Source of the DNA: Escherichia coli
GTDB taxonomy: Bacteria; Pseudomonadota; Gammaproteobacteria; Enterobacterales; Enterobacteriaceae
NCBI RefSeq assembly: GCF_044324875.1
Contig: NZ_CP172187.1
DNA length: 64,000 nucleotides
Direction: 5' to 3' (one strand)
Shown: one piece after another, positions 27,212-27,290 of the stretch
How the letters are laid out: every line of letters starts with the position of its first letter
Position numbering within the stretch: position 1 is the stretch's first letter
Notes under the pieces: generated by a model
The model's input: the letters and a program-made list of their open reading frames with translations, nothing else
What the model was told of the DNA's origin: nothing
Databases searched by the model: none
Program-made: the position numbers and the translations under genes

Positions 27212-27290
27212 TGAAAATCGCCGATGCAGGGAGTTCAGACCTCCCTGCATCGACTGTCCATAGAATCCTTAACGGAGGTTCCTATGTGTG
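27212..27290 (-). ncRNA. finP: FinP antisense RNA (approximate)
   Basis: Antisense to traJ leader/RBS/start; perfect 12-bp stem CGATGCAGGGAG/CTCCCTGCATCG at 27222-27252 followed on the minus strand by a U-rich tract. Confidence 0.55.

Follow-up and report, generated by a model that had tools for sequence, protein, structure and literature searches.

Does the short segment in front of traJ in this stretch of DNA (64,000 nt, analyzed over its full length and hereafter called the window) carry a true finP gene and, if so, which allele is it and what would it do? The preliminary description had called the segment FinP-like, citing a perfect 12-bp stem and a U-tract on the minus strand that overlap the traJ ribosome-binding site and start codon. 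The minus strand of 27212-27290 reads CACACAUAGGAACCUCCGUUAAGGAUUCUAUGGACAGUCGAUGCAGGGAGGUCUGAACUCCCUGCAUCGGCGAUUUUCA, and our Rfam scan of the whole window matched it to the FinP model (RF00107; gathering score 45) at 91.2 bits and E = 5.5e-17, over positions 1-76 of the 76 in the model and 27290..27214 of the window. The same DNA, read on the opposite strand, matched the traJ_5 model (RF00243; gathering score 50) at 118.3 bits over 27181-27289. Folding of the minus-strand RNA gave -38.6 kcal/mol, where 200 dinucleotide shuffles averaged -18.5 (z = -6.8, with 0 of 200 as good), and the MFE structure, the centroid and the Rfam structure are one and the same, i.e., two hairpins (SLI and SLII). 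The features of the locus are collected in Table 1, in which the finP promoter is a predicted site called by consensus match, and in which the ends of finP are likewise predicted, the 5′ end at 27290/27289 and the 3′ end at the GAUUUU tail.

Table 1. Features of the finP-traJ region of the window and the basis on which each was called
Feature	Position	Strand	Basis and remarks
finP gene, ~77 nt	27214..27290	-	Rfam match; fold; collinear with finP of F, R100 and R1
finP promoter-like site, TTGACT-17 nt-TACGAT	27297..27325	-	Within the first traJ codons; consensus scan
SLI	27259-27286	-	Anti-Shine-Dalgarno CCUCC; complementary to the traJ ATG; MFE/centroid fold and Rfam structure line
Single-stranded spacer GACA between SLI and SLII	27255-27258	-	Predicted structure
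SLII with intrinsic terminator hairpin	27220-27254	-	14 bp: 12 Watson-Crick pairs, a G.U and a G-C
SLII loop, 7 nt	27234-27240	-	FinP GUCUGAA; traJ mRNA UUCAGAC
3′ tail GAUUUU	27214-27219	-	Rfam match and predicted fold
traJ Shine-Dalgarno GGAGG	27274-27278	+	
traJ start codon ATG	27284-27286	+	
traJ mRNA 5′ untranslated leader with SLIIc and SLIc	27181..27283	+	Rfam RF00243
traJ promoter-like site, ATGACA-17-TATATT	27148..27176	+	10/12 consensus matches; just upstream of the Rfam leader match
traJ	27284..27970	+	Intact; 228 aa; PAS fold
traM, upstream neighbor	26707..27090	+	ORF; annotated as traM in the matching pAA and R1 loci

These results take the element beyond the earlier wording. The perfect 12-bp stem is real, with Watson-Crick arms at 27222-27233 and 27241-27252, and in the RNA it extends to 14 bp. 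The U-tract is indeed on the minus strand but is short: the GAUUUU tail is followed by CAGUUU, and only four U (27217-27214) stand in line, which is normal for FinP and is also the case in plasmid F. A consensus scan called a terminator-like site on the minus strand at SLII, and the Shine-Dalgarno sequence and the ATG of traJ are both covered by the FinP RNA, so that the overlap described for the ribosome-binding site and the start codon holds as well. Together with the position between traM and traJ, the two hairpins, the GAUUUU tail and the conserved promoter-like site on the minus strand, the Rfam score argues for FinP, and, judged from its sequence, the element is a true finP gene of the R1 allele group. 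Based on identity, structure, position, conserved promoter hexamers and complementarity to the ribosome-binding site, we put the probability that it is the finP of an F-like plasmid of this group, i.e., a ~77-nt antisense RNA that represses TraJ together with FinO, at about 93%. The feature as such is an already known element. Among the ~125 sequences that we collected, SLI is unchanged except in one (L023, which did not fit the pattern set for SLI). The SLII stem was part of the search pattern itself; both stems are invariant in these sequences, and covariation support for them is that contained in the Rfam model. In L023, from a metagenome contig (OQBT01000995, coverage ~1.7x), ATT replaces the traJ ATG (…GGAGGTTCCTATTGT), through either mutation of the start codon or an error in sequencing.

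The surroundings are those of a well-known plasmid type. Genes for an SLT transglycosylase, traM, traJ, traY and traA follow one another in the order seen in F, R100, R1 and pAA, and on this sequence evidence the window is part of an F-like (IncF, MOBF/MPF_F) conjugative plasmid. The 321 bases at 27100-27420 are 100% identical to many plasmids in PLSDB and RefSeq, including pAA of E. coli 042 and a plasmid of ETEC H10407; over the whole window, PLSDB records cover no more than ~81-90% of either of the two 25-kb pieces searched. Several blocks elsewhere in the window have no counterpart in R1. Within the tra operon, between traT and traD, an IS21-family element (53580-55998, minus strand; an IstA-like protein of 548 aa and an IstB of 332 aa) sits in a block (52773-56209) that R1 lacks and adjoins a 284-aa ORF without a Pfam match (52729-53583); the insertion could be polar on traD and traI. 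A region of ~1.2 kb between traR and traC (33773-35015) contains three small ORFs (170, 81 and 129 aa) and is likewise without an R1 counterpart. In the leading region, a group II intron (RF00029, 67 bits) was matched at 18767-18887 on the plus strand, and the block around it (16226-18888) is absent from R1 and annotated in related plasmids with an ltrA reverse transcriptase/maturase.

Our survey of the window also returned other RNA genes and repeats. Three further Rfam matches lie above the gathering score, all on the minus strand (AS-traI at 61274-61350, AS-traG at 49209-49294 and AS-pc01 at 12932-13033); these families take their names from plasmid pHK01, and the matches suggest a pHK01-like IncFII backbone. 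The leading region also contains a sok antitoxin RNA (RF01794, 89 bits, 22997-23173, plus strand) of a hok/sok type I toxin-antitoxin locus, as well as three copies of a ~640-bp repeat (12165-12796, 15528-16166 and 23590-24229), each with the same 21-nt inverted repeat (CAGCCCACAAAATTTTTTACC...), which may be single-strand initiation or Frpo-type promoter elements. The longest inverted repeat of the window, a perfect one of 27 nt with a 2-nt spacer (25474-25529), is placed at the 3′ end of a DUF932-family ORF, upstream of the SLT gene, and at 3414-3472 a tandem array of AGATAACA faces an inverted copy, giving perfect 16-nt inverted repeats, in what looks like an iteron or protein-binding array.

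What the element would do is taken from the literature on F and R1, which is the source for its transcription, its dependence on FinO, its sensitivity to RNase E and the repressive outcome. A constitutive promoter in the first codons of traJ would give a minus-strand RNA of ~77 nt that forms SLI and SLII and stops at the terminator of SLII, leaving a GAUUUU-3′OH end. This RNA, perfectly complementary to the traJ leader, would begin to pair through loop-loop kissing (SLI with SLIc and SLII with SLIIc), as apical loops are known to seed pairing (PMC9977716; PMC10470590), and the duplex would then spread over the Shine-Dalgarno sequence and the ATG. FinP is known to pair with the traJ 5′ UTR, occlude the ribosome-binding site and prevent TraJ-dependent activation of the tra operon (PMC8744291; PMC3105414), so that translation of TraJ, and with it activation of the tra operon, would be blocked. 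Effective repression would require FinO, whose binding site comprises the base of SLII and a 3′ tail, 6 nt or longer, with a free 3′-OH; the protein shields FinP from RNase E and accelerates duplexing, for 100- to 1000-fold repression (PMC3105414). In F, SLII is the high-affinity FinO site, the 6-nt single-stranded tail is required for FinO binding and the 4-nt spacer is the RNase E-sensitive region (PMC3105414). All of the RNA elements that this mechanism needs are present in the window, i.e., the GACA spacer, the 14-bp SLII, the 6-nt GAUUUU tail and the anti-Shine-Dalgarno sequence in SLI.

The finO gene itself had been placed beyond the window, and our search agrees with this: the last base of traI is 63695, traX begins at 63715 and is cut off by the end of the window at 64000, and tblastn with R1 FinO gave no match to finO in the 64,000 nt. 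In R1, finO is intact (186 aa) and lies ~1 kb beyond traX. Because traX runs off the end and finO is outside, repression status is not readable from the window, as the preliminary description also stated. In F, finO is interrupted by IS3, which leaves FinP unstable and ineffective, and the FinP described here could be in the same state, depending on the finO outside the window. The strongest competing account concerns the state of the system and not the identity of the feature, namely, that finP is present but non-functional in a derepressed plasmid, with finO disrupted or transfer otherwise crippled. The location of finO past the end of the window leaves room for this account, and the IS21-family element between traT and traD shows that the tra region has been disturbed; on the other side, traJ with its leader and finP with its promoter-like site are undamaged and exactly match the sequences of hundreds of plasmids, and the nearest reference, R1, has an intact finO. 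We regard a derepressed plasmid as unlikely, if by no means negligible. Identification of the element as FinP has annotation value only, in that it marks an F-like plasmid with the standard fertility-inhibition switch, and whether this switch is on depends on the finO outside the window.

Typing of the allele led to the one unusual feature of the locus. The TraJ protein and the SLI loop (plus strand TTAAC) are of the R1 type, not of the F or R100 type, and R1 (NZ_KY749247) shares 318 of 321 bases over 27100-27420, the sole differences being at positions 27234, 27237 and 27240, all of them in the SLII loop. On the plus strand this loop reads GTCTGAA in R1 and TTCAGAC in the window, an exact reverse complement, so that of the two recognition loops SLI is the same as in R1 and SLII is its reverse complement. 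Accordingly, loop II of FinP (UUCAGAC in R1 and GUCUGAA here) has in each plasmid the sequence of the traJ SLIIc loop of the other. In DNA, the SLII site is a quasi-palindrome in which arms of 15 nt with one mismatch flank a single central base, and the step from R1 to the window alters exactly the mismatched pair and the center. Read from sequence, the allele is thus an R1-group allele with a flipped loop II and not the R1 allele itself, and relative to R1 its SLII hairpin would have undergone, or escaped, a loop inversion.

Both orientations are common, and the flip is not confined to this allele. Exact matches over 90 nt around SLII in PLSDB number 283 for the window form (TTCAGAC) and 880 for the R1 form (GTCTGAA), and 120 metagenome loci with the SLII stem include 11 of the former and 22 of the latter. 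The loop flip was noted at 27234-27240 of the window and also at L061, L064, L128 and L129. The metagenome set contains 11 distinct SLII loops, among them a second exact reverse-complement pair (CAGCCA/TGGCTG) and a near pair (CTTGTCC/GGACTAG), and shuffles that preserve composition yield at least two reverse-complement pairs at a frequency of 2e-5. As a test by prediction, the flipped forms of two alleles were built by hand and searched in PLSDB: the flipped CAGCCA allele gave 17 exact matches, and the flipped F-type allele (loop TTCACGT) gave one exact match and at least seven at 98.9% identity. Inspection of this exact match and of one of those at 98.9% showed the flipped F-type loop in both, with the mismatch of the latter in the flank. 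In the R1 group, at least four flanking haplotypes are found with the loop in both orientations, and orientation tracks the flank tree only weakly: over 32 sequences it needs seven Fitch changes, where shuffled labels need 9.9 on average and never fewer than 5. This pattern points to recurrent inversion of the hairpin loop, so far as it can be judged from sequences.

Gene conversion, i.e., short-tract recombination that spreads a single old flip, could also have contributed. The stretch between 27211 and 27400 offers no informative sites, and short conversion tracts could therefore also spread one old flip; moreover, SLI and SLII loops are found in mosaic combinations, so recombination within the region does happen. 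It is hardly credible, on the other hand, that the loop came to differ from R1 through three independent point substitutions, or that the differences are errors of sequencing or assembly, as just three bases differ (because four of the seven loop positions are self-complementary, TC.GA) but these three make up an exact reverse complement with nothing else changed in 321 bp, both forms are abundant in sequences from many laboratories and sequencing platforms, the CAGCCA/TGGCTG pair differs at four of six positions, the hand-built flipped F-type loop, which differs at all seven, was found in nature, and the shuffles given above seldom produce such pairs. Neither loop inversion in FinP nor small hairpin inversions in bacteria were described in the literature that we searched, which covered work other than the older papers on finP alleles. 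Recurrent inversion of the SLII loop is a small finding, and the identity of the element is unchanged by the flip.

Self-regulation should remain intact after a flip, because one and the same DNA encodes FinP and its target, which are still perfectly complementary. Pairing in trans is a different matter: between R1 FinP and the SLIIc loop of the window, 4 of 7 positions can pair and the run is broken at the center, whereas all 7 pair when both loops have the same orientation, and the flip would thus weaken loop-II kissing between flipped and unflipped alleles. The SLI loops of the window and R1 are fully cognate, and FinO is reported to rescue many loop mutations (PMC9977716). For these two reasons the loop flip is most likely a polymorphism that is nearly neutral (in cis) and mechanically favored; that it acts as a one-step switch of specificity is possible. 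SLI cannot flip in the same way, since its arms pair imperfectly and include the Shine-Dalgarno sequence. We suggest, tentatively and well short of an even chance, that SLII is naturally prone to flipping in three or more allele groups (among them the R1-, F- and CAGCCA-type), where inversion keeps self-repression and creates a new trans-specificity. If this suggestion is right, the perfect 12-bp arms let a loop of 6-7 nt invert repeatedly, a single inversion turns FinP loop II into the former target loop sequence, and a plasmid could in this way escape repression by the FinP of a related co-resident plasmid. In any case, the flip is a clear case in nature of an antisense recognition loop that changes in one step and stays compatible with itself, and it may help to explain the origin of the many finP “alleles” of IncF plasmids.

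On whether the minus strand has a transcript of its own, the promoter region is informative. Across 10 variants, representing ~120 related loci, the hexamers TTGAC[T/G] and TA[C/G][G/T]AT hold their position and 17-nt spacing, and the spacer and the DNA upstream of the -35 vary freely with divergent TraJ N-termini. A GATC (27296-27299) overlaps the finP -10 hexamer; in the Salmonella plasmid pSLT, Dam methylation at this site modulates finP transcription. SLII is also stronger in FinP (14 bp, -28.6 kcal/mol) than in its mirror in the mRNA (12 bp, -23.2 kcal/mol), because two positions that are G.U in FinP are C.A in the mRNA. A T-run follows the hairpin on the minus strand only, and a role as traM terminator on the plus strand was ruled out, as the plus-strand hairpin has no T-run. 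We consider it very improbable that the hairpins serve solely as a cis-regulatory fold in the 5′ UTR of traJ, with the minus strand a mirror image without its own transcript: the traJ_5 match on the plus strand is the higher of the two (118 bits) and mirror-image hairpins are expected from any antisense pair, but the T-run is exclusive to the minus strand, the fold of that strand has two extra pairs and is 5.4 kcal/mol more stable, its promoter hexamers are fixed inside otherwise divergent traJ coding sequence, and FinP transcripts are documented for F and R1 (PMC8744291, PMC9977716). A finP feature is absent from the RefSeq and PLSDB annotation of identical loci, which is a matter of annotation practice and not evidence of absence; the element is therefore easily overlooked.

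Comparison with known systems places the locus as follows. R1 is the nearest reference, with the same gene order and an identical SLI loop, both stems, spacer, tail and promoter hexamers; its TraJ differs at 2 aa (226 of 228 identical), and its TraM is annotated as the same protein as that of pAA, which matches the window. The FinP of F, the prototype of RF00107, is alike in its two hairpins, an identical SLII stem, GACA and GAUUUU, its overlap with the traJ ribosome-binding site, and its -35 and -10 hexamers at the same spacing. It differs in that the SLI loop region is 2 nt shorter in the window and the SLII loop is unrelated, and the TraJ proteins of the two are highly divergent. R100 FinP shares the architecture and the context, and differs in its loops (its SLIIc loop is AGCGAC), in its TraJ allele and in one stem position that is G.U in FinP and A.C in the mRNA. 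CopA/CopT of R1 and the Inc RNA of IncI plasmids with FopA are also cis-encoded, fully complementary, loop-seeded antisense RNAs, and in plasmid antisense RNAs that pair through kissing loops the size and sequence of the loop set the pairing rate (PMC10470590; PMC9977716). Unlike FinP, these RNAs control replication and not conjugation, and CopA does so without the need for a chaperone of the FinO family. For the flip itself, the parallel lies outside bacteria. Minute hairpin-loop inversions with perfect arms recur in non-coding chloroplast DNA, out of step with phylogeny, and there, as at SLII, the few bases enclosed by the perfect arms of an inverted repeat are replaced by their reverse complement. 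In contrast to the chloroplast case, the loop in the finP hairpin serves in recognition between a pair of regulatory RNAs encoded on a bacterial plasmid, so that a flip changes a determinant of specificity.
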